From a virus, in IMG/VR virus record IMGVR_UViG_3300045988_069050, positions 1-64,000 of that record: a stretch of DNA of 64,000 bases; one strand, given 5' to 3'. This document shows, piece by piece, positions 5,247-30,846 of this stretch. Under the pieces are notes generated by a model. The model saw nothing but the letters and a program-made list of their open reading frames with translations, did no database searches and was not told the origin of the DNA. The position numbers were made by a program, and so were the translations under genes. How positions within the stretch are numbered: the stretch's first letter is position 1; each line of letters begins with the position of its first letter.

Positions 5247-5320
5247 GTCCCGTTAGCTCAGTTGGATAGAGCAACAGCCTTCTAAGCTGTGGGTCGTAGG
5301 TTCGAATCCTACACGGGATA
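5247..5320 (+). tRNA. tRNA-Arg(TCT)
   Basis: Cloverleaf by eye: acceptor gtcccgt/acgggat, anticodon stem acagc/gctgt loop cttctaa, T-loop ttcgaat. Confidence 0.8.
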
Positions 5321-5342
5321 CTAACAATTAAAAAACAAAACT

Positions 5343-5555
5343 ATGATACTATTTATTTATATCTTAGGAGTACTAATGGCATGGTTTCTAATGTATTTAG
5401 AAGAGAAATATCGTTATAAGAAGGAAAAGACCTATAAATTTACTTTAGGTAATCTATTGTCAAGCATATTCTTTTCTTTATTTTCATGGATTGTAGTAGC
5501 AGCGTGCCTAATATCCTTGTCGGATAAAATAATCTTAGTAGATAAATCCGACTAA
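5343..5555 (+). CDS. small 2-TM membrane protein (70 aa)
   Basis: ORF between tRNA-Arg and tRNA-Lys; hydrophobic. Confidence 0.4.
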   Translation: MILFIYILGVLMAWFLMYLEEKYRYKKEKTYKFTLGNLLSSIFFSLFSWIVVAACLISLSDKIILVDKSD

Positions 5556-5560
5556 TTAAT

Positions 5561-5634
5561 GACTCCGTAGCTCAGTTGGTTAGAGCACGATACTTTTAAT
5601 ATCGGGGTCCCGAGTTCGAATCTCGGCGGAGTCA
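5561..5634 (+). tRNA. tRNA-Lys(TTT)
   Basis: acceptor gactccg/cggagtc, anticodon stem cgata/tatcg loop cttttaa. Confidence 0.85.
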
Positions 5635-5688
5635 CTCTTTTTCTTTTATTCCGCTAGTAAACATTTGTTGTGAAACACGTGTTTGCAT

Positions 5689-5761
5689 CTGGGTATAGTC
5701 GAGTTGGTAAGATGCTACATTTGGGATGTAGAGACCGCAGGTTCGAGTCCTGCTATCCAGA
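5689..5761 (+). tRNA. tRNA-Pro(TGG)
   Basis: C1:G72 acceptor ctgggta/tatccag, anticodon stem ctaca/tgtag loop tttggga. Confidence 0.7.
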
Positions 5762-5966
5762 CAAGAAGTAATCAACATTCACTATTAGTACAGCAATTAG
5801 GACTGTAGGGTGCCTTTTAGATGAATCCCTGATTACTCCGATTAACAGAGGCAATGTCCTTAATATCGTTACCACGCACTGCGGCTATTAGCTGTTAGAT
5901 GATTTGGGGTGCCAAATGGAAGAACGGTAACAGCTATGTTAATTAGAACGAATCTGTTAATTGTAT

Positions 5967-6049
5967 GGGAGTGCGCCAACGTTGGAGAGTTGGGCTTGAC
6001 TGTAAATCAAGTGCCTATGGCTTAGAAGGTTCGAATCCTTCCACTCCCA
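5967..6049 (+). tRNA. tRNA-Tyr(GTA), long variable arm
   Basis: acceptor gggagtg/cactccc, anticodon stem cttga/tcaag loop ctgtaaa. Confidence 0.75.
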
Positions 6050-6747
6050 CAAATTTAATGAATATGTTAATAGGATTTTTAGTATTTATTACTCTAGAAA
6101 TAGCTATAATAGCTACTATAGGGTTTACTTATTTTCACGAAGATGATAAGAATTTCAAGAATTATCGCAAAGGAAAGAATAGCTGATTTGTTAGACTTAA
6201 ATTTCGTGTCTAAGATAGAAATTAAGACAGGGAAAACAAGGATTTAATAATCCTGCTATTTGTAGAGTAGAAATCTATTTACTACTTGAAAACGACAAAG
6301 AGTACTTTAATTCCAAAATGGCTGATATTATGTCATGGGCACAAAAGAACAAATGTAACATTGCTTTTTACTACTGCTAGTTATGGCTCTCAAAGACGGA
6401 TTTATTAAAGAATCTGCTTTTTGATGACTTTAACTATCCAGTTCCTAAAAAGTATAAGGCATTATGTGATATTTATTTCAGCAAGTTACTTTAATCTATT
6501 TAATAGAAGAAAGCTATAATGGAAGATTAGTACGAAGGATTATCTGACGAAGAACTTAAAGAGATTTTCGAAGATATGGAAGCAGACTATTGGATAGACT
6601 ACTATCAGTCTCTCTGTGAGTAAAACTCTGTTAGCGAGATGCGCAGAGTTTAGACCTAGGATATGGATTTTAGAAATATGTATACCCACTGCATATAGGT
6701 TAGTCATGTTTAAACGAGGAAACCAGGGTTCTCTACTAGGTCGATTC

Positions 6748-6831
6748 GGGATTGTAACCGGTAATTGGTAGCCGCGCAGACTGTAAATCTGCTCTCTTTT
6801 GAGACTGGAGGTTCGAGTCCTCCCAATCCCA
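6748..6831 (+). tRNA. tRNA-Tyr(GTA) second copy, long variable arm
   Basis: acceptor gggattg/caatccc, anticodon stem gcaga/tctgc loop ctgtaaa. Confidence 0.7.
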
Positions 6832-6852
6832 CACATTTTAATTAATTAGATT

Positions 6853-7047
6853 ATGACAAAAGAAGAAGCAATTAGAGCTATGTCTGAAGGAAAGAAAGTA
6901 AGGCATAGATACTTTAGTAAAGACGAATGGGTAACTATAAATTCCAGCGGACTATATGAGTTCGAAGATGGTGTAAAAGTTGACTCATCGTTATTTTGGA
7001 TGGACAGACAGGATTCCTATTGGAATGATGGATGGAGCTTAGTTTAA
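6853..7047 (+). CDS. small hypothetical protein
   Basis: ORF directly after tRNA, preceded by TTTTAATTAATTAGATTATG motif. Confidence 0.45.
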   Translation: MTKEEAIRAMSEGKKVRHRYFSKDEWVTINSSGLYEFEDGVKVDSSLFWMDRQDSYWNDGWSLV

Positions 7048-7074
7048 CTTTAAATAAGAATAAAATGACAACGT

Positions 7075-7326
7075 ATGAGTACGGAAAAGGATACTTGCCA
7101 GAAATCTGGTACTAGTGTAATATTCCAAAAAGAAATTACGCAGTGTAGGGAATGTCCTCATTGTAGAATCGCTCCTGACCCAGACCCCGATGACTGGTTC
7201 AATGACGATGATGAAAAAGCGCTTTGTAAAGAAGCAGGGAATAAACTAATTGAGGGAATGTTAAGACCTTACGAAAGGGTATTAATTCCGGATTGGTGTC
7301 CATTAAAAACTAATAAACAAAAATGA
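7075..7326 (+). CDS. small Cys-rich protein (CRECPHC)
   Basis: ORF with putative zinc-binding cysteines. Confidence 0.5.
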   Translation: MSTEKDTCQKSGTSVIFQKEITQCRECPHCRIAPDPDPDDWFNDDDEKALCKEAGNKLIEGMLRPYERVLIPDWCPLKTNKQK

Positions 7327-7775
7327 ATAGAATTAAGACAAAAGCCTATCTTGAGGTAACTTTAGAGCAGGCACGCGAATGGTATGAAAGCGGTAATGAA
7401 GACTTGAAGAAATTAGCTCTTACTACATTTAGTGAAGAAATGCTAATTCCTTCTTTTCTAGAAGTATTAGAATCAGAAAAGTGGACTGTATCAGCATTAC
7501 CTAGAAGTACATCGGAACAATTTGCTTCCCTAGCCCTTCTACAACTAACTGCTAACTATCTAAATAAAGGATGGAGCAAAACAGAGGGCAATACTGGTTA
7601 TTTTCTTGGAAAAGGTTCTTCTTTATCTGGAAAGACGGAAACCGATATAAAAGGAGTATACGTTGGTATGCATCAAAATGTAAAATATCCAGGTGTTGTT
7701 TATTTTAGAACCGTAGCTGATGTACAGAAAGCGGTGAAGATACTAGGAAATAAGTTGCTTCCACTATTCGAATAA
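7323..7775 (+). CDS. hypothetical protein (150 aa)
   Basis: ORF, ATGA overlap with upstream. Confidence 0.55.
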   Translation: MNRIKTKAYLEVTLEQAREWYESGNEDLKKLALTTFSEEMLIPSFLEVLESEKWTVSALPRSTSEQFASLALLQLTANYLNKGWSKTEGNTGYFLGKGSSLSGKTETDIKGVYVGMHQNVKYPGVVYFRTVADVQKAVKILGNKLLPLFE

Positions 7776-7782
7776 TTTGATG

Positions 7783-7855
7783 GTGTTATTAGTTCAGTTG
7801 GCAGAACGCTACATTGTGGCTGTAGAGGTCAGCGGTTCAAATCCGCTATAACACC
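7783..7855 (+). tRNA. tRNA-His(GTG) with G-1
   Basis: G-1 plus acceptor gtgttat/ataacac, discriminator C, anticodon stem ctaca/tgtag loop ttgtggc. Confidence 0.8.
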
Positions 7856-7885
7856 CAAATCATGTTTTATTAAATACTATAACAA

Positions 7886-8446
7886 ATGAAAAGAACTATT
7901 GAAATTGAATGTCCAGATGGCTACAAGCCTATCTACAATGCCAAAACAGGTAATGTTGAAATTGTTCCAGAGAATATTATGGGACGAATAAAGACCTATG
8001 AGGACGCTAGAGACTATCTTGGGTACTTATTTAATAGTGAAATCCATTACACTGAATCTGTAAAGGCTCTAGCTAAGTTGCAAACAATTCTGGATGCGCT
8101 GAACGAAAAGCACAAGTTCAATCTGCTGACTGGAACTGTATGGTATCCTTGGGTTCGGTTCTTTAGAATGAAATCAGTGCCGAAAGATGCAGAGGTCATT
8201 GGACACTTCCGTTATCAGGGCGAGAAATTCGCGTTGGTGGGCGGCGGCGCGGGTTCTGGCGGCTATGCGGGTCTCGGCTATTTCTATTCTGACTATGGCG
8301 TCAGCTATGCCGATTCCGATGTCGGGATGCTTGCGTGCAAATCTGAAGAGATTGCCAAATATGTGTCAACTCAGTTTGGAAAGCTAGTGTTTGATGCTTG
8401 TTTTGCAAGACATTTTGAAGGTAAAGAATTTGAGTGGCTTGACTGA
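7886..8446 (+). CDS. hypothetical protein with Gly/Tyr-rich segment; contains GC-rich island 8215-8340
   Basis: ORF; local GC about 60% vs about 35% background. Confidence 0.6.
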   Translation: MKRTIEIECPDGYKPIYNAKTGNVEIVPENIMGRIKTYEDARDYLGYLFNSEIHYTESVKALAKLQTILDALNEKHKFNLLTGTVWYPWVRFFRMKSVPKDAEVIGHFRYQGEKFALVGGGAGSGGYAGLGYFYSDYGVSYADSDVGMLACKSEEIAKYVSTQFGKLVFDACFARHFEGKEFEWLD

Positions 8447-8925
8447 TGAAGAAGTTTTTTGTACTTACGCTTGCTATGCTCTGGATGAGCGTAGCAGCAT
8501 TTTCTCAGATAACTATATCTCAGGAAGATTATGATAAGTTACCCAATGAGACTAGAACTCAAATTGAGAAGATAACAACAGAGAAGGCTATAAAGGGTGA
8601 AATCAAGGAAGTTTCTGAGTATGCAAATCTCGGTAAGGAGATTGGAGTAGCCGTTAATGAAACTTTGAAGGCAGTTGAAGATTCAGCCATAAGAATAGCA
8701 GAATCCAACCTGGGACAAACAGCAATAACTATCGTAGTATGGAAACTTCTCTATAAGGAGATAGCTGGAATTGTAGTAGGCACCATACTATTAGGAATAT
8801 CAGTATTTATGCTACTAACTGGTAGAGGAAAACTATCCAAAAACGATGAAGATGCTGGAGGTTGGATAAGTGTGGTAGGAGGAGCTGTATTCTTTATATC
8901 TTCAATGATTTGTATATTTGGCTGA
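8446..8925 (+). CDS. secreted/membrane protein (N-terminal signal MKKFFVLTLAMLWMSVAAFSQ, C-terminal TM)
   Basis: Signal-peptide-like N-terminus and hydrophobic C-terminus. Confidence 0.6.
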   Translation: MKKFFVLTLAMLWMSVAAFSQITISQEDYDKLPNETRTQIEKITTEKAIKGEIKEVSEYANLGKEIGVAVNETLKAVEDSAIRIAESNLGQTAITIVVWKLLYKEIAGIVVGTILLGISVFMLLTGRGKLSKNDEDAGGWISVVGGAVFFISSMICIFG

Positions 8926-9089
8926 GGAGCAATCCAGGCTATAGGCTGGTGTATTCTAGCTATATTCTGTGTATTATTGCTTCTTGGATGTATATTAGGC
9001 TAACTAATTGGTTAGCCCTCTGGAAGGGTGGCAGAGTCAGGTTTAATGCAACGGTTAGATGAATAGTTAGAAACTTTAATGTTATGTAA

Positions 9090-9482
9090 ATGAACGCTTG
9101 GGAAAGCGACTACAAATCACATCAAGGCAATTTAGGGTTAGGCAGGGCTATAGCTTATTATACAACTAATTGTATTCCTGTCCTGATTCCTTTAAATGAT
9201 ACTCAAAAGTATGATATAGCAATAGATAAAGATGGGTTGAAGAGAGTTTCTGTTAAAACTACTCAATGCCTATCAAAGAGTGGCAACTATGAAGTTCTAT
9301 TAAAGAATTGTGGTGGCTCTTCTGGACAATCAAAGATTAGACACTTTGATAATTCTACATGCGATATATTATTTATTGTAGTAGTCAACGGTGATATGTA
9401 TGAGATTCCTTCAAGTGAGATTATAGTTAAAAGTACTCTAACTCTCACGGATAAATGGGACAAATATAAAGTTTCATTGTAA
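9090..9482 (+). CDS. hypothetical protein, possible PD-(D/E)xK nuclease fold (DIAIDKDG...KRVSVKT)
   Basis: Motif pattern only. Confidence 0.5.
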   Translation: MNAWESDYKSHQGNLGLGRAIAYYTTNCIPVLIPLNDTQKYDIAIDKDGLKRVSVKTTQCLSKSGNYEVLLKNCGGSSGQSKIRHFDNSTCDILFIVVVNGDMYEIPSSEIIVKSTLTLTDKWDKYKVSL

Positions 9483-9483
9483 T

Positions 9484-9575
9484 GGAAGTATAAGCCTAAT
9501 TGCTAAGGCAGTAGTCTTGAAAACTACCAGTAATCGTGTAAAAGCGATGTGTGGGTTGGAGTCCCACTGCTTCCT
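9484..9575 (+). tRNA. tRNA-Ser(TGA), type II
   Basis: acceptor ggaagta/tgcttcc, anticodon stem gtagt/actac loop cttgaaa, long variable arm. Confidence 0.7.
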
Positions 9576-9627
9576 CAAAACCGTCGGGCGGTAAAACGTC
9601 CCCAGGGTTCGAATCCCTGTCCTTCCG
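9576..9627 (+). pseudogene. tRNA 3'-half remnant (T-arm cagggttcgaatccctg + acceptor tccttccg) without matching 5' half
   Basis: Canonical T-arm and acceptor 3' strand immediately after tRNA-Ser; 3' end nearly identical to tRNA-Ser(GCT) 3' end (..tccgcaattaac). Confidence 0.4.
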
Positions 9628-9636
9628 CAATTAACT

Positions 9637-18824: not shown

Positions 18825-18906
18825 TCCGATTTAGCTCAGTATGGTAGAGCGCCCATACCAATAAAGCATTAGTGGGAGGTCAGAGGTTCAAATCCTTTAA
18901 TCGGAA
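18825..18906 (+). tRNA. atypical tRNA-like gene: normal acceptor, D and T arms but 15-nt anticodon loop (accaataaagcatta); identity unclear
   Basis: acceptor tccgatt/aatcgga, D-arm gctc..gagc, T-arm agagg ttcaaat ccttt; anticodon stem cccat/gtggg encloses 15 nt. Confidence 0.4.
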
Positions 18907-18992
18907 CGACGAAACAAGGCTCCACAGCAGTTACAAGTTGTAACTGGTCTTATCTCCGAATAACTAGTCTTACGGGGTGGAGAAGTAGTCAC

Positions 18993-19067
18993 CTCGGTGT
19001 ACCAGAGTGGTTTAATGGCTCAGACTGCAAATCTGCTGATTCGTCAGTTCGAATCTGACCACCGAGT
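18993..19067 (+). tRNA. tRNA-Cys(GCA) second copy (C1:G72)
   Basis: acceptor ctcggtg/caccgag, anticodon loop ctgcaaa, T-arm gtcag ttcgaat ctgac. Confidence 0.6.
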
Positions 19068-19204
19068 CTCGACGTGCAAGTCTTTTAACTACAATAGTTA
19101 ACGTGTCTGGTTACGTTATCACCCAGTCGTCACCTACGGTTAGAAGGGCGTCCCTTATCGTGAAAGGCATCTCTGAGTAGCGGATGTAAATTAGCTACTA
19201 ATAT

Positions 19205-19284
19205 CGTGGAGTAGAGAAGTTGGTCATCTCGCTAGGCTCATAACCTAGAAATCGTCATAAACGGTTCGAATCCTACCTCCGCAA
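19205..19284 (+). pseudogene. tRNA-like(CAT) with degenerate T-stem (probable pseudo-tRNA)
   Basis: Perfect anticodon stem ctagg/cctag loop ctcataa and D-arm, but T-loop ggttcgaatcc is flanked by only 2 pairing bases; 3' end ..tacctccgca resembles Ser tRNA 3' ends. Confidence 0.4.
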
Positions 19285-19344
19285 CTAAACTCCTTTTGTG
19301 GCTCTGTTATTAGATTAATTATTAACAATTTTAAACTTTAATGT

Positions 19345-19464
19345 TATGAAGAAAGTAATTAATGTTGTAAAGAAAGCTGCTAAATGGTATTTTGAACAGA
19401 GTTCTAAGAACTACACTTGGTTAGTGTCTGGAACAATACCTCCTCCATACAGAGGACAAGAGTA
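19345..19464 (+). CDS. small hypothetical protein (39 aa)
   Basis: Manually read ORF. Confidence 0.3.
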
Positions 19465-19525
19465 AAAATATCATTAAAAGGTAAGTACCAATGGGGTACT
19501 TACAGATGTCTGGGAGGAAATAATA

Positions 19526-19611
19526 TGTATGGTTAGCCAAGTGGCCGACGGCAGCGGGCTGTTAACCCGTCGTGAGAAATCCCATCGCAGGTTCGAATCC
19601 TGCACCATACG
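19526..19611 (+). tRNA. type-II tRNA-like, anticodon GTT (Asn) with 16-nt variable arm (unusual)
   Basis: acceptor gtatggt/accatac, anticodon stem gcggg/cccgt loop ctgttaa, T-arm gcagg ttcgaat cctgc. Confidence 0.5.
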
Positions 19612-19771
19612 CCTTTTTGCTGAACCCTCCTTAGTTTTTAACTAAGCAATAGTAATCCAGCAAACTCTAGACCGATGTGAGGAAGAGAGTCGTCTAGACG
19701 GTAGCTAGCACTGTAGTACGCAATGGTGGAATAGAAACGGCTAGCATCCACCAACTTTTAATTAATTAGAT

Positions 19772-20137
19772 ATGATAGTACAACCTATTGGAAAGTTTAA
19801 ACTTACTTATGCAAATGGTATAAGTCAAGTTAAGCTGTTAATAACTCAGGAAGACTACAAGTCTATTGTCAAACCTATATTAGATAATATAGCTGAGTTA
19901 GAGGCACAGCGAAGTGGGATTAATAAAAAGAGTAAAAGGTATAAGGAAATTTCGGAAAAACTTAGAGAACTGAAAAAACCTATATCGGAACTTGGAGAGT
20001 TTTTCACAAGCACGTCTCCTCTTGGATTAGCACTATGGAGTAGTCGCTTCCCAAACTTGATACTTCCGCCTCAACAAGGCGGTGGACATTTTGTTAGATT
20101 TGAAAAATTAGATTTGTATGAAAATAAGGAAGGTTAA
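19772..20137 (+). CDS. hypothetical protein (121 aa)
   Basis: ORF preceded by TTTTAATTAATTAGATATG motif. Confidence 0.55.
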   Translation: MIVQPIGKFKLTYANGISQVKLLITQEDYKSIVKPILDNIAELEAQRSGINKKSKRYKEISEKLRELKKPISELGEFFTSTSPLGLALWSSRFPNLILPPQQGGGHFVRFEKLDLYENKEG

Positions 20138-20306
20138 CTCCACTATCAAAAGACGAGTTCTTAGGGAAGTGTCTAGAGAGTGCAGAAAGAGGAATATGAT
20201 GGACAAGAAAGGTGAAATTCCAAATGATATTAAAGACATATGGGAAGCGATTAAAGTATTAACAAAGAGAAATAAACAATTTGCTGTTAGATATGCATCA
20301 ATGTGA
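20118..20306 (+). CDS. small basic protein
   Basis: ORF. Confidence 0.35.
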   Translation: MKIRKVNSTIKRRVLREVSRECRKRNMMDKKGEIPNDIKDIWEAIKVLTKRNKQFAVRYASM

Positions 20307-20374
20307 TTATTGTTGTTGGTATAATCCTGCCAGTGGGTGCTGTGATTGTCCATACGTAATGAGACGGAAAGCGT

Positions 20375-20572
20375 GTGAGAAGGCTCGTAAACAGAAAGAA
20401 GAAAATGAAAAGCCTAGAAAGTTATAGCATATTTACTAAGCCTAAACTATCTAATCCTGTATCATGGGAGGATATGAAAGAATTTAATACCCATATGAAG
20501 GAAGTAGTTAGAGACTATAAGATTAGGCAAGCTAAAGCTAGAGAAAGCGCTAAGAAAGTAATTATTAAGTAA
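20375..20572 (+). CDS. small basic protein
   Basis: ORF. Confidence 0.4.
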   Translation: MRRLVNRKKKMKSLESYSIFTKPKLSNPVSWEDMKEFNTHMKEVVRDYKIRQAKARESAKKVIIK

Positions 20573-20836
20573 ATACTAACCTGGCAAGGTAAAAATCCAG
20601 TCGGGGTCTGTTAGCATTTATGCTAATAAGTCGAAGCCAGTCCCTGCGTAGTTATAATAGGCAAGCTGAACTTGAGAATTGTTAAACGGATGGTTGCCGT
20701 TAAAAGATATATAGTTACAAACTTATGTATCCAGAATATAACTAATTAAAGACTTATCTGGTGATGTTAGGTTATGGAATCCTAACAGTGGAAATTTATG
20801 AGTTATGTCACCAATTAAAAAGAAAATCTCAAACAT

Positions 20837-20909
20837 GGGCCGTTAGCTCAAATGGCTAGAGCGCTGGTTTTGCACACCGGAAGATAGGGTTCGAGTCCCT
20901 GCGTGTCCA
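20837..20909 (+). tRNA. tRNA-Ala(TGC)-like with poorly paired acceptor stem (possible pseudogene)
   Basis: D-arm, anticodon stem ctggt/accgg loop tttgcac and T-arm are canonical; acceptor pairs only 4 of 7, including a G3:U70-like pair. Confidence 0.35.
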
Positions 20910-20927
20910 CAACAAAATTAAATAATT

Positions 20928-21074
20928 ATGAAAGTATACGTAGTCGTAGTGAACCATCATCCAGCTAATGCGCCTCAGAACTATAAAACTGAGTGTCAGA
21001 TATTTCTGGATAAAAAGGAAGCCGAAGGCTATAAGAAAGCCAAGGAAGAAGAATATCCCATACGTTGGGGATGA
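20928..21074 (+). CDS. small hypothetical protein (48 aa)
   Basis: Manually read ORF. Confidence 0.3.
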   Translation: MKVYVVVVNHHPANAPQNYKTECQIFLDKKEAEGYKKAKEEEYPIRWG

Positions 21075-21110
21075 AGGCTATTATGATGACCGTTCAGATG
21101 TTCCAGAACT

Positions 21111-21407
21111 ATGAGCGTAATACAACAGGTCTACTTAGCTGAATCAGGCAGTTCTATTTACATAAAGGGGATTAAACCTGATAAAGAGAATGAATATTCT
21201 GGTGAGATTACTCTAAACGGTAATCCCACTAGATTAGAGAGAAAAGAACGTTACCATATAAGTAACGGTATGCTTGTTACAGATAGTTATCATATCCCTA
21301 TGGAGTTCATTATTAGCTTCTTGCAGGCTAACGGATGTGTTCAAGAAGGAGAAGATGGCAAGTCGTATGTTGTTTTAAGAGAAGTAGAATTTAAATTGAA
21401 TAACTAA
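21111..21407 (+). CDS. hypothetical protein (98 aa)
   Basis: ORF. Confidence 0.5.
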   Translation: MSVIQQVYLAESGSSIYIKGIKPDKENEYSGEITLNGNPTRLERKERYHISNGMLVTDSYHIPMEFIISFLQANGCVQEGEDGKSYVVLREVEFKLNN

Positions 21408-21988
21408 TGTTATCAGTATTATATAGCGAATATGAGCTGTGGGGTTGTCCTAATTGTGGGTGCGATTCCGTTATAAGTAGTGGAATTTCTGGAGGAGGTC
21501 TAACATCTGGAACTTGTAGACATTGCAAGTTAAAATTTGAAGTTAGAAGCGAAAATCCAATGGGAATAGTCAAATATGGCTGCCATCCAGAAAATCCCTC
21601 AGACCCGAAATCTAAATGGGTTATGGAAAGCGCAATCAGAATTGAACATCCTAGAAAAGGTATTCCTGCATGGAATTGGGAACCAGTTGACGAACGTCCA
21701 GAAGAAGGAGAATATTGGAACTCTCGTGGTCCTGGCTATCCAGATGTTTCTGGCTTTGTAAAGACCAAAGCTGCTGGTGAGCGTATTCTAGCTATGGTGC
21801 ATGAAGTGTTAGGAACTGACAAGTGTAAGACTTATCTAGATTTCAGACCAAGTGAACCAACGTGGATTCAATTCAAATTTCATAAAGACGAGTTTGATAT
21901 AGAGAAACTAGATTCTCTTACTCGTGATAGTGGAATAATTACTAAAGACATAATCAAACAATGTATTTATGGCAAAAGTAGTAAATAG
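21407..21988 (+). CDS. hypothetical protein with N-terminal zinc ribbon (CPNCGC...CRHCK)
   Basis: ORF with Cys pairs. Confidence 0.6.
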   Translation: MLSVLYSEYELWGCPNCGCDSVISSGISGGGLTSGTCRHCKLKFEVRSENPMGIVKYGCHPENPSDPKSKWVMESAIRIEHPRKGIPAWNWEPVDERPEEGEYWNSRGPGYPDVSGFVKTKAAGERILAMVHEVLGTDKCKTYLDFRPSEPTWIQFKFHKDEFDIEKLDSLTRDSGIITKDIIKQCIYGKSSK

Positions 21989-22220
21989 GGCCTCTGATAT
22001 AATCCAACTTAAAGACCTAAAGGATGGGGAATTTGCAGAAGTGATAGAATGGTTTGAGGATGGAACAGTATCTAACGGAGATATAATTCAAAGATGTGGA
22101 CTTGCACTATTTATATTAGGAAGTTGTTCTTACTATCCTGAGATATTTAGTAAGGGTGCTAGAGACTATACTAATACTAAGTTACGGACACTACCTGAGG
22201 GTACAACTATAATGTTATAA
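21969..22220 (+). CDS. hypothetical protein (83 aa)
   Basis: ORF. Confidence 0.45.
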   Translation: MAKVVNRASDIIQLKDLKDGEFAEVIEWFEDGTVSNGDIIQRCGLALFILGSCSYYPEIFSKGARDYTNTKLRTLPEGTTIML

Positions 22221-22260
22221 TTTCTTTTTCCAGTTTTCTAATTAAAGATAAACTGGGTAT

Positions 22261-22822
22261 GGGCCTACTTGGATTTGACAGGCGATTACAAATTATAAGG
22301 ACGTGTAGAGCGCAATCTCTTTAAACGAAGAAAAAACAATAAATGCTACTTATAGCGAAGTAAGAATGGCAGCCTAAGCTGCTGGCTTGTTGGTAGACAC
22401 TATTAACTAAGTCGGGTTACGGGAGAGACCTAGAAACAGAAGAGGTTGAGTATATTGATATAATGGAGAGCTAGGCTCTAATCCTAGTAATATGCTCTTA
22501 ATCAGAACACTCTAAGAGTTAGTAAGACTGAATCTCCTACGTCATAAAACAGATGGAAGATGTGTTCCGTGAGATGTGACGAATCTCTAAAGTATCATCC
22601 CGTTCTCCAACGTAAATGGAGTGGTGGAACGTTGACTTCGGTCAGCCCTATAGTTTGGTAGCTTGTAGATAAGCATCTAGAGAAATACTTAGTATGGACT
22701 CTTGTAAGACTTATAAAACTACCTAAATGCTAGAACTCCCTAGCTGATATAATAAAAATGAGACGCACGTTATCCTTGTAACGAGGGTTGTTTGGACACG
22801 GGTTCGACTCCCGTTAGGTCCA
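22261..22822 (+). ncRNA. ssrA: tmRNA (ssrA)-like RNA; tag reading frame 22345-22377 encodes ATYSEVRMAA
   Basis: 5' GGGCCTACTTGGATTTGACAGG matches tmRNA 5' consensus GGGGCUGAUUCUGGAUUCGACGGG. 3' GGACACGGGTTCGACTCCCGTTAGGTCCA matches E. coli ssrA 3' GGACGCGGGUUCAACUCCCGCCAGCUCCA. Acceptor 7 bp with G3:U70. A-rich run before resume codon GCT; stop TAA lies in loop of hairpin gcagc-ctaa-gctgc. No ORF of 60 aa or more in about 940 bp. Confidence 0.75.
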
Positions 22823-22828
22823 CATAAT

Positions 22829-22902
22829 AGGGCTATAGCTCAACTGGTTAGAGCACCACACTGATAATGTGGAGGTTATCAGTTCAAGTCTGATTAGCCC
22901 TA
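22829..22902 (+). tRNA. tRNA-Ile(GAT)
   Basis: acceptor agggcta/tagccct, anticodon stem ccaca/tgtgg loop ctgataa. Confidence 0.75.
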
Positions 22903-22979
22903 CAAAACCGCCAGCTCACGCGGTATATAAGAAAGGATTGCCGGACTCGCAGGTGTAACGAGATAAATACCTGCATTTT

Positions 22980-23052
22980 CGAGGCTGTGGTGTAATGGCT
23001 TGCATATCACACTGTCACTGTGAAGGTTGGGGTTCGAATCCCCCAGTCTCGG
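22980..23052 (+). tRNA. tRNA-Asp(GTC)
   Basis: anticodon stem tcaca/tgtga loop ctgtcac, T-loop ttcgaat; acceptor register cgaggct/agtctcg. Confidence 0.65.
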
Positions 23053-23059
23053 CATTTAT

Positions 23060-23132
23060 TCCCCTGTAGTTTAGTTGGTTAGAACACGTGATTTGTAATC
23101 TCGAGACCTCGGTTCGAATCCGAGTGGGGGAT
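23060..23132 (+). tRNA. tRNA-Thr(TGT)
   Basis: acceptor tcccctg/tggggga, anticodon loop tttgtaa, T-arm ctcgg ttcgaat ccgag. Confidence 0.6.
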
Positions 23133-23159
23133 CTTAACCATTAAATCAGATTAATTTTT

Positions 23160-23834
23160 ATGACTAGATTAGAAAAGTATTTAGTAGCAACTGCTACTGA
23201 GATTATCGAAGCGGAAACAACTGTTTCTCGCTACTTTGTCATTGGAAACGTCAAAGTTAGAGTATCAGACCATTTAAGTAAAATGAGTGATGCAGACTTA
23301 CAAGTGATTATTCCATTGAACGGAGGGACTAAGTATATAGTTACTGTTAAGGATAGTCCTGGAAAATTTCTTGTATGGAATGCAACTCAAATAAAAGACT
23401 TTATTCCTTCATTGCAGATTATTAAGGGCTTGAAGGAAGGAGTACAACTTAAGCCAAAACCTAAAGACTCTGCAGTTCAGAAGATTCAGCTAGCATTAAA
23501 TAATAGTAATACCGATGGAGGTTCGTTAACGTTCGATGGTACTATTATCGAGTCTAGATTGAAAGAAAAGCAACTTACCTCCAAACAGCGGGAAGTTTTC
23601 AGGAGAACTAAATCTACTTGGGATATTTCTCAGATTGGAACATTACCCAGTATGATTAAAGTAGATTTGGGATTGTCAAATGGTTCTGTAAACGAAGATG
23701 TGCAGATATTTCTAACTTGTACATCTTTAACCTACAAAGAAATTCTGAACATTTATAAAATAATAGTTGTTGATAACCATATGGTTCCAACTATTAAACT
23801 GTTGCAAGAAGCTTATAGCTTAATTGTGCAGTAG
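23160..23834 (+). CDS. hypothetical protein (224 aa)
   Basis: ORF. Confidence 0.6.
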   Translation: MTRLEKYLVATATEIIEAETTVSRYFVIGNVKVRVSDHLSKMSDADLQVIIPLNGGTKYIVTVKDSPGKFLVWNATQIKDFIPSLQIIKGLKEGVQLKPKPKDSAVQKIQLALNNSNTDGGSLTFDGTIIESRLKEKQLTSKQREVFRRTKSTWDISQIGTLPSMIKVDLGLSNGSVNEDVQIFLTCTSLTYKEILNIYKIIVVDNHMVPTIKLLQEAYSLIVQ

Positions 23835-23837
23835 GAT

Positions 23838-23909
23838 AGCGCCATCATCTAATGGTTAGGATTCAGGCTTTTCACGCCTGCCATACGGGTTCGAATCCCG
23901 TTGGCGTTA
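23838..23909 (+). tRNA. tRNA-Glu(TTC)
   Basis: acceptor agcgcca/tggcgtt, anticodon stem caggc/gcctg loop ttttcac. Confidence 0.75.
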
Positions 23910-23916
23910 CTATGTA

Positions 23917-23948
23917 CCCCAGCAGCGGAAGTTGTTGGGGTATTTTTT
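23917..23948 (+). terminator. rho-independent terminator (8-bp stem ccccagca/tgttgggg + TATTTTTT)
   Basis: Hairpin plus T-run directly after tRNA-Glu. Confidence 0.6.
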
Positions 23949-23966
23949 GTTTAATATAATTAATAA

Positions 23967-24290: not shown

Positions 24291-24716
24291 ATGAAAACGT
24301 TAAATGAGATTTTAGACAATTACAAAGACTATGCCGTAGTTCTCGATGACCGTTTCGGTTCTAGATTAGCAAAGTTTTTAACAGAAGAGCAGTTAGAAAA
24401 AATAGGCTTCAAGTACGATGGTGATGAGCCTTATCCAGAGCCTAAGGAATGGACTAGAGAGAATATCCTAGAGCAACTTAAGTCTGACGTGGAGTTTGGT
24501 TTTGAGAAGGCTCTAGACCAGAGAGGCATTTCAGCTAGCCTAATGTTCTACGTGGTACTAAGGTGGAATCAAGTTCTAGAAGAGGGCTTAGAGAATTATC
24601 CTGAAGAGAATTATGCTATGTATGGGTTGCCTTTGTTTAAGGCTACTGCTGTAAAGTATGGATGGGAGAATCCTATAGGCGACGATAATGGGGACGAAGA
24701 GTTCTACAATGAGTAG
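24291..24716 (+). CDS. hypothetical acidic protein (141 aa)
   Basis: ORF. Confidence 0.55.
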   Translation: MKTLNEILDNYKDYAVVLDDRFGSRLAKFLTEEQLEKIGFKYDGDEPYPEPKEWTRENILEQLKSDVEFGFEKALDQRGISASLMFYVVLRWNQVLEEGLENYPEENYAMYGLPLFKATAVKYGWENPIGDDNGDEEFYNE

Positions 24717-26507: not shown

Positions 26508-28523
26508 ATGAATTTTAAAGATTTCAAGAAAGATGTAGAGTCTGCTTTCAATGCTATGATTGCAGATAATTTATTTGTAGTTAATGTAGACAAAGACCTT
26601 TTGTGGATGAGTTATCTTCTCTCCTTTGAGGACGAAACAATTCGGCAAGATCACAATTGTAATGCTTGTAAGTCTTTCATACGTCACTATGGTAAGGTAG
26701 TCGCTATAGACCCTCAAACCTACAAGGTGAAAACCTTCTGGGATGATGTTCACACTCCTGGCTATGAAAAGACCGCATCTGATTTAGCTAAGCTCGTTAA
26801 GGAAGCTGGAATAGGAGATATATTCATTCAGGATGTTAATGAGTTTCACGGTTGTGACCATAATGTGCAACTTCTTCCTGATGGAACTACTAGAACTTGG
26901 ACTCACTTGTACGTGACTATTCCTAACAAGTTTAAATTCAACAAGAGAGTACATCATTTCGATTCTGCCGCAGGTTATCGCGGAGATGTTAGAGCTAGAG
27001 CTGGTGTCTTTGAACGCTCTCTTTCCGAGCTTAAACTAAGTGCGGTAGAAACCGTAATTGAGTTGATAGAGGATAATAATCTCTATCGCGGAGAAGAGTT
27101 CCTAAAGACTCTGCAAGAGTTCAGAAGAACTATGCTTGAGGCCGATAATCTCTCACCAGAGGTTCGCACTAACTATTGTTGGTTTAACTTCAAATCTCCA
27201 ATAGCTAAAATTAGAAATACGGCTATGGGAACTCTACTGATTGACTTAAGTAATGGTGTAGACCTGGAAAGAGCTGTTAAGTCTTATGAGAACATTATGG
27301 CTCCATCTAACTATAAGAGACCTACTGCTCTTATTACTAAGAAACAAATTGAGGCTGCTCAGAAGAAGGTTGAAGAACTTGGGTTAACTGATGCCCTTCC
27401 TCGCCGTCATGCTCGTGTAGAAGATATTTCTGTAAACGACGTTCTGTTCGTAAATAGAGACACTCGTGCACGTATGAAAGGAGGTATATTTGACTCTTTA
27501 AAAGAGACCTCAACGGTTAATCCTAAAGAGTATACCAAAGCTACTGAAATTTCAATTTCGGAGTTTGTAACTAATGTATTGCCACACTCTAAGGATGTGC
27601 AAATTCTTGTTGAGAATAAGCATATTCCTAATTTTGTTACCCTAACTGCTCCAGAGAACCCTGATGCAGGTCAGCTGTTCAAATGGAAGAATAACTTCGC
27701 TTGGGTGTATAATGGCTCTATGGCGGATTCATTCAAGGAGAAAGTAAAAGCAGCAGGTGGTAACGTAAATGGATTCCTAAGATGTTCTCTACACTGGTTT
27801 AACTATGATGACCTTGACCTCCATGTAACAGAACCTGGTGGTAATGAAATCTATTACGGGCATAAGAGAGGATTAACTGGTGGTACACTAGATGTAGATA
27901 TGAACGCTGGTTCTGGTAAAACCAGAGATGCAGTCGAGAATATTATCTGGACTGACCAATCTAAACTCAGAGCAGGTCGATATGAAGTGCGTGTGCATAA
28001 CTTCTGCAAAAGAGAACATATAGACTTTGGATTCGAGGTAGAAATCGAAATCAATGGAGAACTTCATAAGTTCAACTATGATAAGATGGTGTCAGACAGA
28101 GAATATATTGCGGTAGCAATTATCAAGGTAGATTCTATTGGTAATATAACCCTAAGTCCGGTAATTGCCGAAGGTGCAACTTCATACAAGTCTATGAACG
28201 AGTGGGGCATTGATACTATGCGTTTCCAAACTGTTTCTTGCATCATGTATTCTCCAAATTATTGGGAAGGTAATGAAATAGGAAACAAGCACCTATTCTT
28301 CATGATTGATGGATGTAAAAATCCTGACCCAGTTCGAGGATTCTTCAATGAATATCTGAGACCCGATCTCGAAAAAGATCATAAGAGAGTATTCGAAGCT
28401 ATTGGCTCTAGAGCTAAAGCAGAATACAACGATAACCAGTTGAGTGGACTAGGATTCTCTAGTACGTCTCACGACGAGGTTGTAGTTAAAGTTGATAATA
28501 AACCATTTAAAATTAAATTCTAA
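26508..28523 (+). CDS. large hypothetical protein (671 aa)
   Basis: Uninterrupted 2-kb ORF; no motif I can name. Confidence 0.8.
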   Translation: MNFKDFKKDVESAFNAMIADNLFVVNVDKDLLWMSYLLSFEDETIRQDHNCNACKSFIRHYGKVVAIDPQTYKVKTFWDDVHTPGYEKTASDLAKLVKEAGIGDIFIQDVNEFHGCDHNVQLLPDGTTRTWTHLYVTIPNKFKFNKRVHHFDSAAGYRGDVRARAGVFERSLSELKLSAVETVIELIEDNNLYRGEEFLKTLQEFRRTMLEADNLSPEVRTNYCWFNFKSPIAKIRNTAMGTLLIDLSNGVDLERAVKSYENIMAPSNYKRPTALITKKQIEAAQKKVEELGLTDALPRRHARVEDISVNDVLFVNRDTRARMKGGIFDSLKETSTVNPKEYTKATEISISEFVTNVLPHSKDVQILVENKHIPNFVTLTAPENPDAGQLFKWKNNFAWVYNGSMADSFKEKVKAAGGNVNGFLRCSLHWFNYDDLDLHVTEPGGNEIYYGHKRGLTGGTLDVDMNAGSGKTRDAVENIIWTDQSKLRAGRYEVRVHNFCKREHIDFGFEVEIEINGELHKFNYDKMVSDREYIAVAIIKVDSIGNITLSPVIAEGATSYKSMNEWGIDTMRFQTVSCIMYSPNYWEGNEIGNKHLFFMIDGCKNPDPVRGFFNEYLRPDLEKDHKRVFEAIGSRAKAEYNDNQLSGLGFSSTSHDEVVVKVDNKPFKIKF

Positions 28524-28525
28524 TT

Positions 28526-28900
28526 ATGTACAAACAAGCGTCTAAAATGAAGTTGCGCTTTGCAACTAGTAAAGGTAATTTGAGTGTGGAAGATTTGTGG
28601 GACTTAAGTCTGCCTGCATTGGACAGACTGGCAGTGTCCTATGACGAAGAATTAGCCAAGAGTCCTAGAAAATCTTTCATAACTAATGATACTCCTAGCA
28701 ATAGCGAACTGGAGTTAAAGTTCAACATTGTGAAAGATGTTATCACTGATAAGCTGAAAGACAAGGCCGCTAGAGAAGCAGCTAAAGATAAGGCAGCTGA
28801 GAAGGCACGCCTGACTGAACTGCTGGCTAAGAAACAGTCTGAGAAAATGGAAAGTATGTCCGAAGATGAAATCAGACAACGACTTGCAGAACTCGGATAA
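28526..28900 (+). CDS. hypothetical K/E-rich protein (124 aa)
   Basis: ORF. Confidence 0.55.
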   Translation: MYKQASKMKLRFATSKGNLSVEDLWDLSLPALDRLAVSYDEELAKSPRKSFITNDTPSNSELELKFNIVKDVITDKLKDKAAREAAKDKAAEKARLTELLAKKQSEKMESMSEDEIRQRLAELG

Positions 28901-29275: not shown

Positions 29276-29361
29276 GCCCGAATGGTGGAATTGGTAGACA
29301 CGTCAGATTTAAGCTCTGATGCCCAGTAATGGGCGTGTGGGTTCGAGTCCCACTTCGGGTA
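29276..29361 (+). tRNA. tRNA-Leu(TAA), type II
   Basis: acceptor gcccgaa/ttcgggt, anticodon stem tcaga/tctga loop tttaagc. Confidence 0.8.
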
Positions 29362-29380
29362 CTAATTTAATATCAATAAT

Positions 29381-30464: not shown

Positions 30465-30846
30465 TTAGAGGACTTCCGTAGGAAGCTAACATAACATACT
30501 TAACAGGAATAATTATGAACAGTATATTCTTAAATCCGCATGGATTTAATCTTTATTCGCTGGCTACACAAAAATTTACAACCTACTCTCTAATTGAGAG
30601 TCTTTGTCTTAGTCTTTGTTAGTGTAGCTAGGTCTTTGACTACGGCTTCATCTTTGCCTGCGCGTTAGCTTCCTACATAGCTCGTCAACCACGTGTTGAA
30701 GGAGTTACGGAATCCCTTCGGGATTCTAGCCTTTTGCTTCAGTTACAAGTAATCTTTAAACTTGGTGACTATTATCCCAAATTCTCAACAAGATGAAGAG
30801 GGAGGTTGACCAACCTAATAATGGTACAAGCTCTTCGGAGTGATAG

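Follow-up and report, generated by a model that had tools for sequence, protein, structure and literature searches.

A tRNA island of a large human-gut phage, probably remodelled by homing-type endonuclease cassettes

The tRNA island and its gene content

The DNA described here comprises positions 1 to 64,000 of the IMG/VR virus record IMGVR_UViG_3300045988_069050. This window of 64,000 nucleotides (nt), about one third of a genome of approximately 190 kb, was compared with 30 IMG/VR viral contigs, which are called the relatives below and are numbered (L001 and so on) where a single locus has to be named. Between positions 5247 and 23910 it carries an island of transfer RNA (tRNA) genes, interleaved with small open reading frames (ORFs) and accompanied by a transfer-messenger RNA (tmRNA). 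With a rough probability of 0.78, the locus is best explained overall as the translation island of a gut phage of approximately 190 kb that has been remodelled by homing-type endonuclease cassettes. One such cassette interrupts a tRNA-Ser gene of the window and carries a second tRNA gene with the same anticodon.

An earlier note, made by eye from the sequence, had reported about 27 tRNA or tRNA-like genes, and the island is indeed real. ARAGORN predicts 26 tRNAs, all on the plus strand, of which 25 lie in 5247-23910 and one, a tRNA-Leu(TAA), lies apart at 29276-29362. The Rfam model RF00005 gives 27 matches of 38.5-74.3 bits (gathering score 29 bits), each spanning model positions 1-71; the 27th gene, an Ala(TGC)-like sequence at 20837-20909 (39.5 bits), is missed by ARAGORN. 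Every anticodon named in the earlier note, including that of the outlying tRNA-Leu, is reproduced by ARAGORN at the place given there. The island is a phage tRNA cluster in the accepted sense, with 26 tRNA-type genes in 18.7 kb, on one strand and in a conserved order.

From the 5′ end onward, the more ordinary genes found by ARAGORN are the following, with Rfam bit scores in brackets: tRNA-Arg(TCT) at 5247-5321 (71.5), tRNA-Lys(TTT) at 5561-5635 (70.8), tRNA-Pro(TGG) at 5689-5762 (66.4), a first tRNA-Tyr(GTA) at 5967-6050 (41.2), a second one at 6748-6832 (47.4), tRNA-His(GTG) at 7783-7856 (65.4), tRNA-Trp(CCA) at 9637-9710 (60.4), tRNA-Ser(GCT) at 12521-12609 (50.4, with laxer filters), tRNA-Phe(GAA) at 13535-13612 (67.2) and tRNA-Gln(TTG) at 13676-13748 (66.3). 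They are followed by a 76-nt tRNA(CAT), either elongator Met or Ile2, at 14461-14536 (66.7), a 74-nt initiator-type tRNA(CAT) at 14598-14671 (55.1), tRNA-Leu(TAG) at 15571-15653 (60.5), a first tRNA-Cys(GCA) at 17282-17356 (59.1), tRNA-Gly(TCC) at 18669-18744 (55.1), tRNA-Gly(GCC) at 18749-18821 (67.7) and a second tRNA-Cys(GCA) at 18993-19068 (52.9). The series closes with an intact tRNA-Ile(GAT) at 22829-22903 (74.3), an intact tRNA-Asp(GTC) at 22980-23053 (54.7), tRNA-Thr(TGT) at 23060-23133 (60.5) and tRNA-Glu(TTC) at 23838-23910 (58.1). The outlying tRNA-Leu(TAA) is likewise intact (56.9).

The canonical cloverleaf, i.e., a 7-base-pair (bp) acceptor stem, a 5-bp T stem and a 7-nt anticodon loop, is found in 23 of the genes. 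Three depart from it, namely those at 18825 (15-nt loop), 19205 (interrupted T stem and 1-72 mismatch) and 20837 (three non-pairs in the acceptor stem), and the gene at 19527 has a type II form instead. Together the tRNAs cover 19 amino acids; Val is missing and Ala is represented only by the irregular gene. Most anticodons have U34 or G34, so that the A/U-ending codons preferred by the phage can be read, and with simple wobble the set reads approximately 76% of the phage codons. Set against the codon usage of the phage itself, the anticodons thus fit the proposal in the earlier note that the island supplements translation.

Conservation and duplicated isoacceptors

The order Arg-Lys-Pro-Tyr-Tyr-His-Ser-Trp-Ser-Phe-Gln-CAT-Leu-Cys-Gly-Gly-(X)-Cys-CAT-Asn-(CAT)-tmRNA-Ile-Asp-Thr-Glu recurs across the relatives. 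Within this frame the genes vary considerably. For 12 anticodons, at least two allele classes are found that are only 53-76% identical, in a setting of flanking genes that are 80-100% identical. Ordinary island tRNAs have 3-13 alleles each; there are, for instance, four deeply different alleles of tRNA-Arg, two allele classes of tRNA-Lys and ten alleles of the first tRNA-Cys. Compensatory stem changes occur within allele classes, as in the acceptor stem of the first tRNA-Cys and the anticodon stem of the tRNA-Asn at 19527.

Duplicated Tyr, Cys and CAT species had been called unusual in the earlier note. For Tyr and Cys the duplication stands. As the copies are highly divergent and their slots are kept family-wide, they are old paralogs and not recent duplications: both Tyr slots are kept in all relatives covering the region, the second Tyr gene being identical in 20 of 22, and the second Cys slot is kept in nearly all. 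The latter slot alternates between a tRNA-Cys of 75 or 76 nt and an unrelated 86-nt tRNA-Cys(GCA), e.g., at L001:13298-13383. In this 86-nt gene a GAAA loop caps the 5-bp variable arm and the discriminator is T; it is another long-arm version of a tRNA that normally has a short arm.

Several CAT genes, on the other hand, are to be expected, as they can encode initiator, Ile2 or Met tRNAs. Homologs of the 76-nt gene in other phages are annotated either as tRNA-Met or as tRNA-Ile. Bacterial initiators are marked by a 1-72 mismatch, A11:U24 and three G-C pairs at the base of the anticodon stem. The 74-nt gene has A11:T24 and a GGG/CCC anticodon stem, but it has T1-A72 and a G at position 33 (loop TGCATAG), and it is present in only two relatives. 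Some relatives carry a more standard initiator tRNA that is missing from the window.

A tRNA-Ser gene split by an endonuclease cassette

A repeat search revealed a stray T arm at 9602-9631, which led to the identification of a split tRNA-Ser(UGA) gene. Its 5′ half, at 9022-9055 on the plus strand, corresponds to nt 1-34 of a 90-nt gene and matches the intact allele, which most relatives carry; its 3′ half, at 9577-9628 on the same strand, corresponds to nt 39-90 and is 100% identical to that allele. Compared with the intact gene at the same site in L012, 521 bp (9056-9576) replace four nucleotides of the anticodon loop (CTTG). The insert consists, in order, of a 34-nt A/T-rich leader, an ORF of 130 codons, a single nucleotide and a 93-nt tRNA-Ser(UGA) gene.

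The ORF (9090-9482, plus strand) encodes a predicted endonuclease of the PD-(D/E)XK type and the I-Ssp6803I family (Pfam PDDEXK_5, 37.2 bits against a cut-off of 26.1). Its only match in the PDB is 2OST, which we take to be I-Ssp6803I, and this match runs through the catalytic core. I-Ssp6803I is a PD-(D/E)XK homing endonuclease encoded in the group I intron of the tRNA-fMet gene of Synechocystis (PMC1995217). The tRNA that follows, at 9484-9576 on the plus strand (ARAGORN; Rfam 47.6 bits), is referred to here as the substitute. It is 58% identical to the resident allele, from which it also differs in the anticodon stem. Its T-loop TTGGAGT and D-loop AATTGCTA look like a swap of the tertiary pair G19:C56 to C19:G56, and its discriminator is U, compared with G in the resident allele.

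The endonuclease ORF and the 93-nt allele occur together. All six relatives that cover the region and carry this allele have the ORF, and none of the 19 relatives with a 90-, 91- or 82-nt allele has it beside the Ser gene. L001, which belongs to the latter, has only a paralog that is 46% identical, sited in a Tyr gene. As in a homing element, an endonuclease domain is encoded, and the insert is present or absent at one precise site of which the empty form is intact.

A group I intron was considered for the Ser insert of the window and is improbable: only 34 nt are non-coding, four loop nucleotides are lost, and no Rfam group I intron is matched in the window.

Parallel insertions in the relatives

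Similar events are found in other tRNA genes of the family. In L001, the endonuclease paralog and a unique tRNA-Tyr lie between nt 33 and 37 of the resident second Tyr gene. The paralog reaches 65.6 bits with PDDEXK_5 when three in-frame TAG codons are read as Gln, and this reading recreates the VQVK catalytic stretch seen in 2OST. In 16 relatives an HNH gene and a 73-nt substitute tRNA-Asp interrupt the Asp gene within its anticodon loop. In L016 and L029 the Ile(GAT) gene is split, with the substitute tRNA coming first, followed by a sequence with HNH motifs that is interrupted by TAG codons. The 76-nt CAT gene is split by an HNH-type gene in L011, L025 and L027. For the cassettes of relatives, Pfam scores are 22.0 for HNH_2 (cut-off 21) and 27.5 for HNH (cut-off 21.4), and the ORF in the CAT gene, at 20.7, falls slightly below the cut-off. 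Besides the Ser gene, five genes are invaded in relatives, and at all of these the window has the allele without an insert.

A further insertion, in the Leu(UAA) gene at L023:19867-20770, comprises approximately 0.8 kb with an HNH gene. It may be a true group I intron, as it lies at the classical site U34|A35, follows a U, ends in a G and leaves approximately 220 non-coding nt, in agreement with the splice-site rules of such introns. Rfam detects no group I intron in L016, L023 or L025.

Altogether, much of what is irregular in the island would follow from tRNA genes being split and replaced through endonucleases, a process that the earlier note does not mention.

Conserved non-canonical tRNAs

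The earlier note had mentioned aberrant copies. Four such genes, none of them named there, are indeed present (at 18825, 19205, 19527 and 20837), but three of them belong to conserved families and only the one at 18825 looks degenerate. The two halves of the split tRNA-Ser (9022-9055 and 9577-9628) are further tRNA-like pieces.

The gene at 20837-20909 (plus strand) is a non-canonical tRNA-Ala(TGC) with an irregular acceptor stem. Its D, anticodon and T arms are normal, and in the Rfam alignment positions 5-68, 6-67 and 7-66 do not pair. The remainder of the acceptor stem (G1-C72, G2-C71, G3:T70 and C4-G69, with discriminator A) includes the identity pair of tRNA-Ala. No other tRNA-type gene of the island is as conserved, 25 of 27 relatives having an identical copy. 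A full-length alignment is obtained with "tRNA-Pseudo-1" of Vibrio phage KVP40 and its counterparts in KVP40 relatives. Between the two, every position of the anticodon stem differs yet still pairs, and one D-stem pair covaries. No change is seen in the anticodon TGC, in the 5′ strand GGGCCGT or in the 3′ stretch GAAGATAGGGTTCGA(G/C)TCCCTGCGTGTCCA. As canonical phage tRNA-Ala genes with the 5′ strand GGGCCGT end in ACGGTCC, the simplest model would be an acceptor stem of 7 bp in which a single pyrimidine of the 3′ strand bulges out, together with a 4-bp T stem. A pairing of nucleotide 7 with the G after CCCT fits two rare variants, one with a U7 to C change and the other with A in place of that G and C in place of U at the bulge. 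Selection on this gene is well supported by these comparisons of sequences. The "tRNA-Ala" that ARAGORN reports at L023:13984-14057 is a chimera of the 5′ part of the Ala-like gene and the 3′ end of the tmRNA, which arose by a deletion of approximately 2 kb between two similar T arms.

The gene at 19205-19285 (plus strand, 81 nt, Rfam 38.5 bits) is an initiator-like tRNA(CAT) with an insertion in the T stem. It shares the C1xA72 mismatch and A11:T24 with initiators, but it has only two G-C pairs at the base of the anticodon stem and an interrupted T stem; 12 nucleotides are extra in the Rfam alignment. Of 27 relatives, 26 have it with an identity of at least 97.5%. Beyond the family, end-to-end alignments at 82-84% identity are obtained with 81-nt "tRNA-Met" genes of Streptomyces phages; a further match is to an uncultured phage of 484 kb. 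All of these genes share the motif GT-[C(A/T)(T/C)AAAC]-GG opposite CCTAC, which corresponds to an insertion of 7-9 nt in the 5′ strand of the T stem.

The third family is represented by a tRNA-Asn(GTT) with a long variable arm, i.e., of type II, at 19527-19613 (plus strand, 87 nt, G73; ARAGORN; Rfam 55.9 bits). It has a 3-bp D stem and a long variable region. A pattern scan of IMG/VR returned at least 119 loci of this kind, in which ARAGORN predicts at least 114 tRNA-Asn genes of at least 80 nt, 103 of them distinct. Among these 103 in the matches listed, 89 have G73, and the 1-72 pair is U-A in 53 and G-C in 42. Cultured phages have long-arm tRNA-Asn genes as well, i.e., phiKZ (89 nt), 4MG (86 nt), GAP31, Stubb and XacN1. 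In E. coli, Asn identity is determined by the GUU anticodon and G73, and U1-A72 is a determinant for the amidotransferase (PMC9976931). By sequence, the 87-nt gene follows the E. coli Asn identity rules, with the GTT anticodon and G73. Given these features and the many examples in IMG/VR and in cultured phages, the gene is, judged from the comparison, a widespread phage form of tRNA-Asn and not an aberration. Seryl-tRNA synthetase (SerRS) could accept a long-arm tRNA with G73. A description of long-arm tRNA-Asn in phages was not found in the open-access literature. In phiKZ (269271-269937), an annotated HNH endonuclease gene lies approximately 160 nt after the 89-nt tRNA-Asn, and the two may form another endonuclease-tRNA cassette.

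The fourth gene, at 18825-18907 (plus strand, 83 nt, Rfam 52.9 bits), is a degenerate tRNA-like sequence with a CAT-type body, which ARAGORN calls Tyr-ATA. Its anticodon loop has 15 nt (17 nt where the Rfam model has 9). In its alleles the loop ranges from 13 to 19 nt and CAT lies two nucleotides before the stem, of which the pairing is kept, with one compensatory pair. Two alleles have a deletion in the T arm, and the gene is absent from 16 of the 30 relatives. No homolog was found among cultured phages. Probably this element is a decaying CAT-type tRNA; more speculatively, it may be the footprint of a former insertion.

tmRNA and other structured RNAs

The earlier note had pointed to a tmRNA among the tRNAs, and the Rfam model RF00023 bears this out, with 63.1 bits against a cut-off of 47 for a gene that ARAGORN misses. 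The tmRNA (22261-22825, plus strand, 565 nt) encodes the tag ATYSEVRMAA*, with the frame GCU...GCC UAA. Its acceptor stem is GGGCCUA/UAGGUCC with G3:U70, and the pseudoknot region contains an insert of 213 nt. Among the relatives the tRNA-like ends are invariant and the tag occurs in two alleles, ATYSEVRMAA and AEIAPVRMAA, which have the frame and the ending VRMAA in common. The 3′ end lies 3 nt before tRNA-Ile.

The spacer between tRNA-Pro and the first tRNA-Tyr (5763-5966, plus strand, 204 nt), which is conserved in 22 relatives, holds a candidate structured non-coding RNA. RNAalifold predicts 63 pairs in two domains, five of them with compensatory changes, and 98.5% of the cells are paired, compared with at most 47% when the partners are slid. 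The folding energy of the single sequence is not significant (z = -1.33). On the strength of this model the spacer is a candidate for a stable RNA, and as such it recalls the T4 tRNA cluster, which also holds small RNAs. The intergenic region 19069-19204 has conserved blocks, but no convincing shared structure.

Upstream of the island, within a stretch without convincing genes (approximately 1000-1810), positions 1514-1685 strongly match the Rfam family RAGATH-14 (182.9 bits against 149.1). A diverged copy is present in L014 and L026. No paper on RAGATH-14 was found in the open-access literature.

Gene starts, transcription and codon reassignment

According to the earlier note, many tRNAs are immediately followed by a small gene in an AT-rich context, and this holds for 13 of the 27 tRNA genes, which are followed by an ATG-initiated ORF. 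The gap between tRNA and ORF in these 13 cases is 7-29 nt and consists almost purely of A and T. Shine–Dalgarno cores are found upstream of 8.7% of 92 ORFs, compared with a background of 12.8%, and are thus rarer than expected, so that the AT-rich context corresponds to initiation without Shine–Dalgarno sites. Initiation of this kind is typical of Bacteroidota and their phages. From the gene starts, a host of the Bacteroidota type would therefore be inferred. Most of the interleaved small ORFs have no Pfam or PHROG function.

Strong terminator-like hairpins are few inside the island. The strongest hairpin of the island that resembles an intrinsic terminator lies just after tRNA-Glu (23914-23953, plus strand) and has a 13-bp stem with six G-C pairs, followed by a T run. 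Given these two observations, the island is probably transcribed as long precursors, from which the tRNAs would be excised by RNase P and RNase Z of the host.

Gut phages in which stop codons are recoded have been described (Jade, Sapphire and similar clades; bioRxiv 10.1101/2021.08.26.457843). The window, which does not extend to the late genes, has no convincing genes with in-frame TAG or TGA, and ARAGORN finds no suppressor tRNA in it. In L014, a tRNA with the amber suppressor anticodon CTA (307-377) directly follows the RAGATH-14 homolog. Nearly the same tRNA is present at L026:1741-1811, where the anticodon is CTG (Gln), so that the third anticodon base distinguishes the two, along with a few other positions. 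The window holds no counterpart of either. The close likeness of these two tRNAs suggests that TAG has been reassigned to Gln in some members of the family. Two endonuclease genes inside tRNA cassettes, at L001:2907-3266 and L016:16346-16909, are interrupted by TAG codons only, which fits amber readthrough rather than decay. In the window itself, a gap of approximately 470 nt without ORFs in the standard code would contain a frame of 93 codons (30515-30796) on readthrough of two TAG codons; the evidence for it is weak, and chance could account for the frame.

The phage and its gene context

All 30 relatives encode the AAA ATPase of the island at 81-100% identity, and several of them are 185-193 kb long. 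By megablast, only unannotated fragments of human-faecal phages match the window (87-99% identity). The GC content of the window is 36%. Flanking genes encode an anaerobic ribonucleotide reductase (NrdD), NAMPT with a cytidylyltransferase-like partner, a Toprim protein, DnaB-like and SNF2-type helicases, an ATP-dependent ligase, a dUTPase and RNase H. These data support the view that the window is part of a large human-gut phage of approximately 190 kb. The description of the phage as large and jumbo-like in the earlier note agrees with the replication and nucleotide genes, the contigs of up to 193 kb and the tmRNA. A virulent lifestyle, which that note also proposed, may apply, as no integrase domain was found among the ORFs scanned in this third of the genome.

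Several other genes are worth mentioning. A 2H phosphoesterase gene (14692-15102, plus strand; Pfam tRNA_lig_CPD, 31.1 bits against 23; motifs HCT and HIT) starts 20 nt after a tRNA and is kept in 23 of the 30 relatives. By analogy, its product could act in RNA repair or, like Acb1, in the degradation of cyclic-nucleotide immune signals. In the middle of the island, a protein of 652 amino acids (10502-12460) combines an SPFH/Band 7 domain with a long repeat region rich in Ala, Glu and Lys. A protein of 671 amino acids (26508-28523) matches phrog_1735 (E = 5e-242), and its neighbors at 24291-24716 and 28526-28900 match phrog_5706 and phrog_2018. Counterparts of all three, with approximately 43% identity, are found in phiCbK-like, Vi1-like and other large phages; neither a function nor a solved structure was found for the 671-amino-acid protein. 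NAMPT (35912-37462) and the cytidylyltransferase-like protein, which is of the nicotinamide mononucleotide (NMN) adenylyltransferase type, are both encoded, which suggests a pair for the salvage of nicotinamide adenine dinucleotide (NAD). An OmpA-like outer-membrane protein (33018-34034) points to a Gram-negative host.

Proposed explanation and alternatives

The translation island, with about 23 canonical tRNAs, three conserved non-canonical tRNAs and a tmRNA on one strand, would be remodelled as follows. A homing-type cassette would enter the anticodon-loop region of a resident tRNA gene, by which the gene is split. In a mixed infection, the endonuclease would cut the cassette-free allele at this region, and repair would copy the cassette into it. 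The cassettes in the Ser, Tyr, Asp and Ile genes bring along a divergent tRNA with the same anticodon, by which decoding capacity would be kept. As its anticodon stem differs, the substitute would no longer be a target of the enzyme. Turnover of such cassettes would keep the composition of the island in flux. For the phage, the benefit of unusual or alternative tRNA alleles most likely lies in the supply of codons read and in an escape from tRNA-cutting nucleases of the host. Phage tRNAs are known to counter such defences, as illustrated by tRNA-Tyr and tRNA-Lys of T5 and tRNA-Tyr of T6 (PMC11555353, PMC11464382, PMC13096335).

A more far-reaching version joins two proposals, and whether both hold together is evenly balanced in our judgement. 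The first is that the cassettes are selfish elements that "kill and replace": in place of self-splicing, as a new answer to the disruption of an essential gene, the endonuclease gene carries a divergent and presumably cleavage-immune copy of the tRNA that it splits, leading to a continual turnover of isoacceptor alleles. The second is that the type II tRNA-Asn, the bulged-acceptor tRNA-Ala and the initiator with the T-stem insertion are three functional tRNA architectures shared by phages across host phyla, which may have been kept because their shape evades nucleases.

Several points weigh against the explanation given here. No recognizable substitute tRNA was detected in the insertions in the 76-nt CAT gene and the Leu(TAA) gene, so that the scheme of a nuclease plus a substitute is not universal. 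The relatives are too close to one another for the many loci to count as more than a few independent events, and a role of the island tRNAs against defences is argued solely by analogy with phages of E. coli. As to the host, the Bacteroidota promoter motif TAnnTTTG is not enriched in the window (73 matches, 70 expected), nor are sigma-70-like promoters (60 against 55), and the bacterial homologs of the OmpA-like gene are only approximately 30% identical, which allows no assignment of a host.

Among the alternatives, plain compensation of codon usage, with the duplicates, the odd copies and the nucleases as incidental features, is the strongest, its chances falling only a little short of even. 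The suitability of the anticodons for the preferred A/U-ending codons, the 76% of codons that are read, the 36% GC of the window and the conserved order of the set across the family are all in line with it. It leaves unexplained, however, why same-anticodon alleles in single slots are only 53-76% identical, why two divergent Tyr and two divergent Cys genes are retained, and why the structurally non-canonical elements are the most conserved.

It is unlikely that the aberrant copies are decaying pseudogenes, left as junk by selfish endonucleases, with little function in the island beyond the canonical tRNAs. The split Ser halves and the element at 18825 do look like remnants, the KVP40 homolog of the Ala-like gene was labelled a pseudo-tRNA by its annotators, and the chimera in L023 shows that deletions between T arms occur. 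Decay does not account for an Ala-like gene that is nearly invariant among relatives in which ordinary tRNAs have up to 13 alleles, and of which the stems covary with KVP40 around an unchanged anticodon and an unchanged odd acceptor region. Nor does it account for the conservation of the 81-nt CAT gene, including its insertion, from gut phages to Streptomyces phages, or for the prevalence of G73 (89/103) and U1-A72 (53/103) among the type II tRNA-Asn matches listed.

Still less probable is that the interrupted genes contain self-splicing group I introns with homing endonucleases, like those known from cyanobacterial tRNA-fMet and tRNA-Leu genes, in which case the resident tRNAs would be functional. 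The insertions do lie in or beside the anticodon loop, the PD-(D/E)XK family includes I-Ssp6803I from the intron of a tRNA-fMet gene (PMC1995217), and the Leu(UAA) insert of L023 has the position, borders and non-coding length described above. In the Ser insert, however, the leader, the ORF, one nucleotide and the tRNA leave no room for a ribozyme, and the loss of four loop nucleotides speaks against splicing as well. Moreover, Rfam finds no group I intron in the window, L016, L023 or L025, and a full substitute tRNA in the Ser, Tyr, Asp and Ile cassettes would be unnecessary if splicing took place.

It is hardly credible that the tRNA-like sequences serve a temperate element as attachment sites for integration into host tRNA genes: temperate phages often carry tRNA-derived attachment sites and one tRNA-like sequence, the Ala-like one, is invariant, but no integrase or recombinase domain was found among the approximately 90 ORFs scanned in the window, which is about one third of the genome, 27 full-length genes lie on one strand with a tmRNA, and homologs of the Ala-like gene occur in lytic T4-like vibriophages.

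Relation to known systems

The clusters of T4, T5 and KVP40 (approximately 30 tRNAs) resemble the island in having one strand, interleaved small ORFs and homing endonuclease genes, and in their setting in a region for nucleotide metabolism and replication; KVP40 additionally has the non-canonical Ala-like tRNA in common with it. The T5 tRNA region has been reported to counter retron-Eco7 and PARIS via its tRNAs (PMC11555353, PMC11464382). In contrast to this general likeness, similarity at the DNA level is detectable only in individual tRNAs. The island described here further differs in coming from the human gut, in its gene starts without Shine–Dalgarno sites, in the embedded tmRNA and in the cassettes that carry a substitute and split tRNA genes.

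The closest experimentally characterized element is SegB of T4, a free-standing GIY-YIG homing endonuclease in the tRNA cluster (PMC2330249; PMC13096335). Its gene also lies among phage tRNAs and is polymorphic among relatives. SegB targets tRNA-coding DNA and spreads together with neighboring tRNA genes (PMC2330249), while cleavage by the enzymes described here is predicted from sequence. SegB recognizes a conserved motif coding for the T loop, sits between genes and splits none. The present endonucleases, in contrast, are of the PD-(D/E)XK or HNH type and lie inside one tRNA gene, at its anticodon loop, by which the gene is destroyed, and the Ser, Tyr, Asp and Ile cassettes carry a substitute with the same anticodon.

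With I-Ssp6803I, the endonuclease of the window shares the Pfam family PF11645, a similar size (130 amino acids, compared with 150), an aligning catalytic stretch and the kind of target, i.e., the anticodon-loop region of a tRNA gene. The differences are that no intron is involved, that the tRNA is replaced by a second gene instead of being spliced, and that the setting is a phage and not a bacterial chromosome.

Irregular tRNAs have been described in phages before. Allo-tRNAs with 8/4 and 9/3 structures are known, and 8/4 forms of tRNA-Ser and tRNA-His occur in phage clusters (Mukai et al., PMC5389517). Like the genes described here, these tRNAs show conserved departures from the 7/5 cloverleaf, some with bulges, in phage tRNA polycistrons. 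The three non-canonical types of this phage are absent from that study and from a review (PMC7609411).

In the tmRNA, too, known and distinct features are combined. One example of a phage tmRNA is found in a Stenotrophomonas phage annotated with SsrA, and tmRNAs encoded by large phages have been recorded in huge-phage surveys. The present one resembles them in being a one-piece molecule with a G3:U70 acceptor and a tag ending in AA, next to tRNA genes. It differs in its length of 565 nt, the 213-nt insert in the pseudoknot region and the two tag alleles in the family.

Significance

Arrays of tRNA genes and tmRNAs are already known from phages, as are homing endonucleases in tRNA clusters, and for a large phage the island itself is ordinary. 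Judged by the open-access literature, two elements appear to be new: the cassette that combines an endonuclease with a substitute tRNA, and the recognition of the three "odd" tRNAs as conserved families.

Homing endonucleases are thought to need introns or inteins for the invasion of conserved genes (PMC3943268). If the explanation proposed here is true, a cassette with a replacement gene would be a different route into such genes, and cassettes of this kind would account for the mosaic make-up of phage tRNA clusters, with their divergent alleles, duplicates and fragments. The "pseudo-tRNA" of KVP40, the 81-nt "tRNA-Met" and the 86-89-nt "tRNA-Asn" have been flagged as odd by annotation tools, yet they are conserved across phages from gut, marine and soil environments. 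If this conservation holds, these tRNAs would be testable candidates for products of an arms race with the tRNA-cutting defences of bacteria, a subject of active study.

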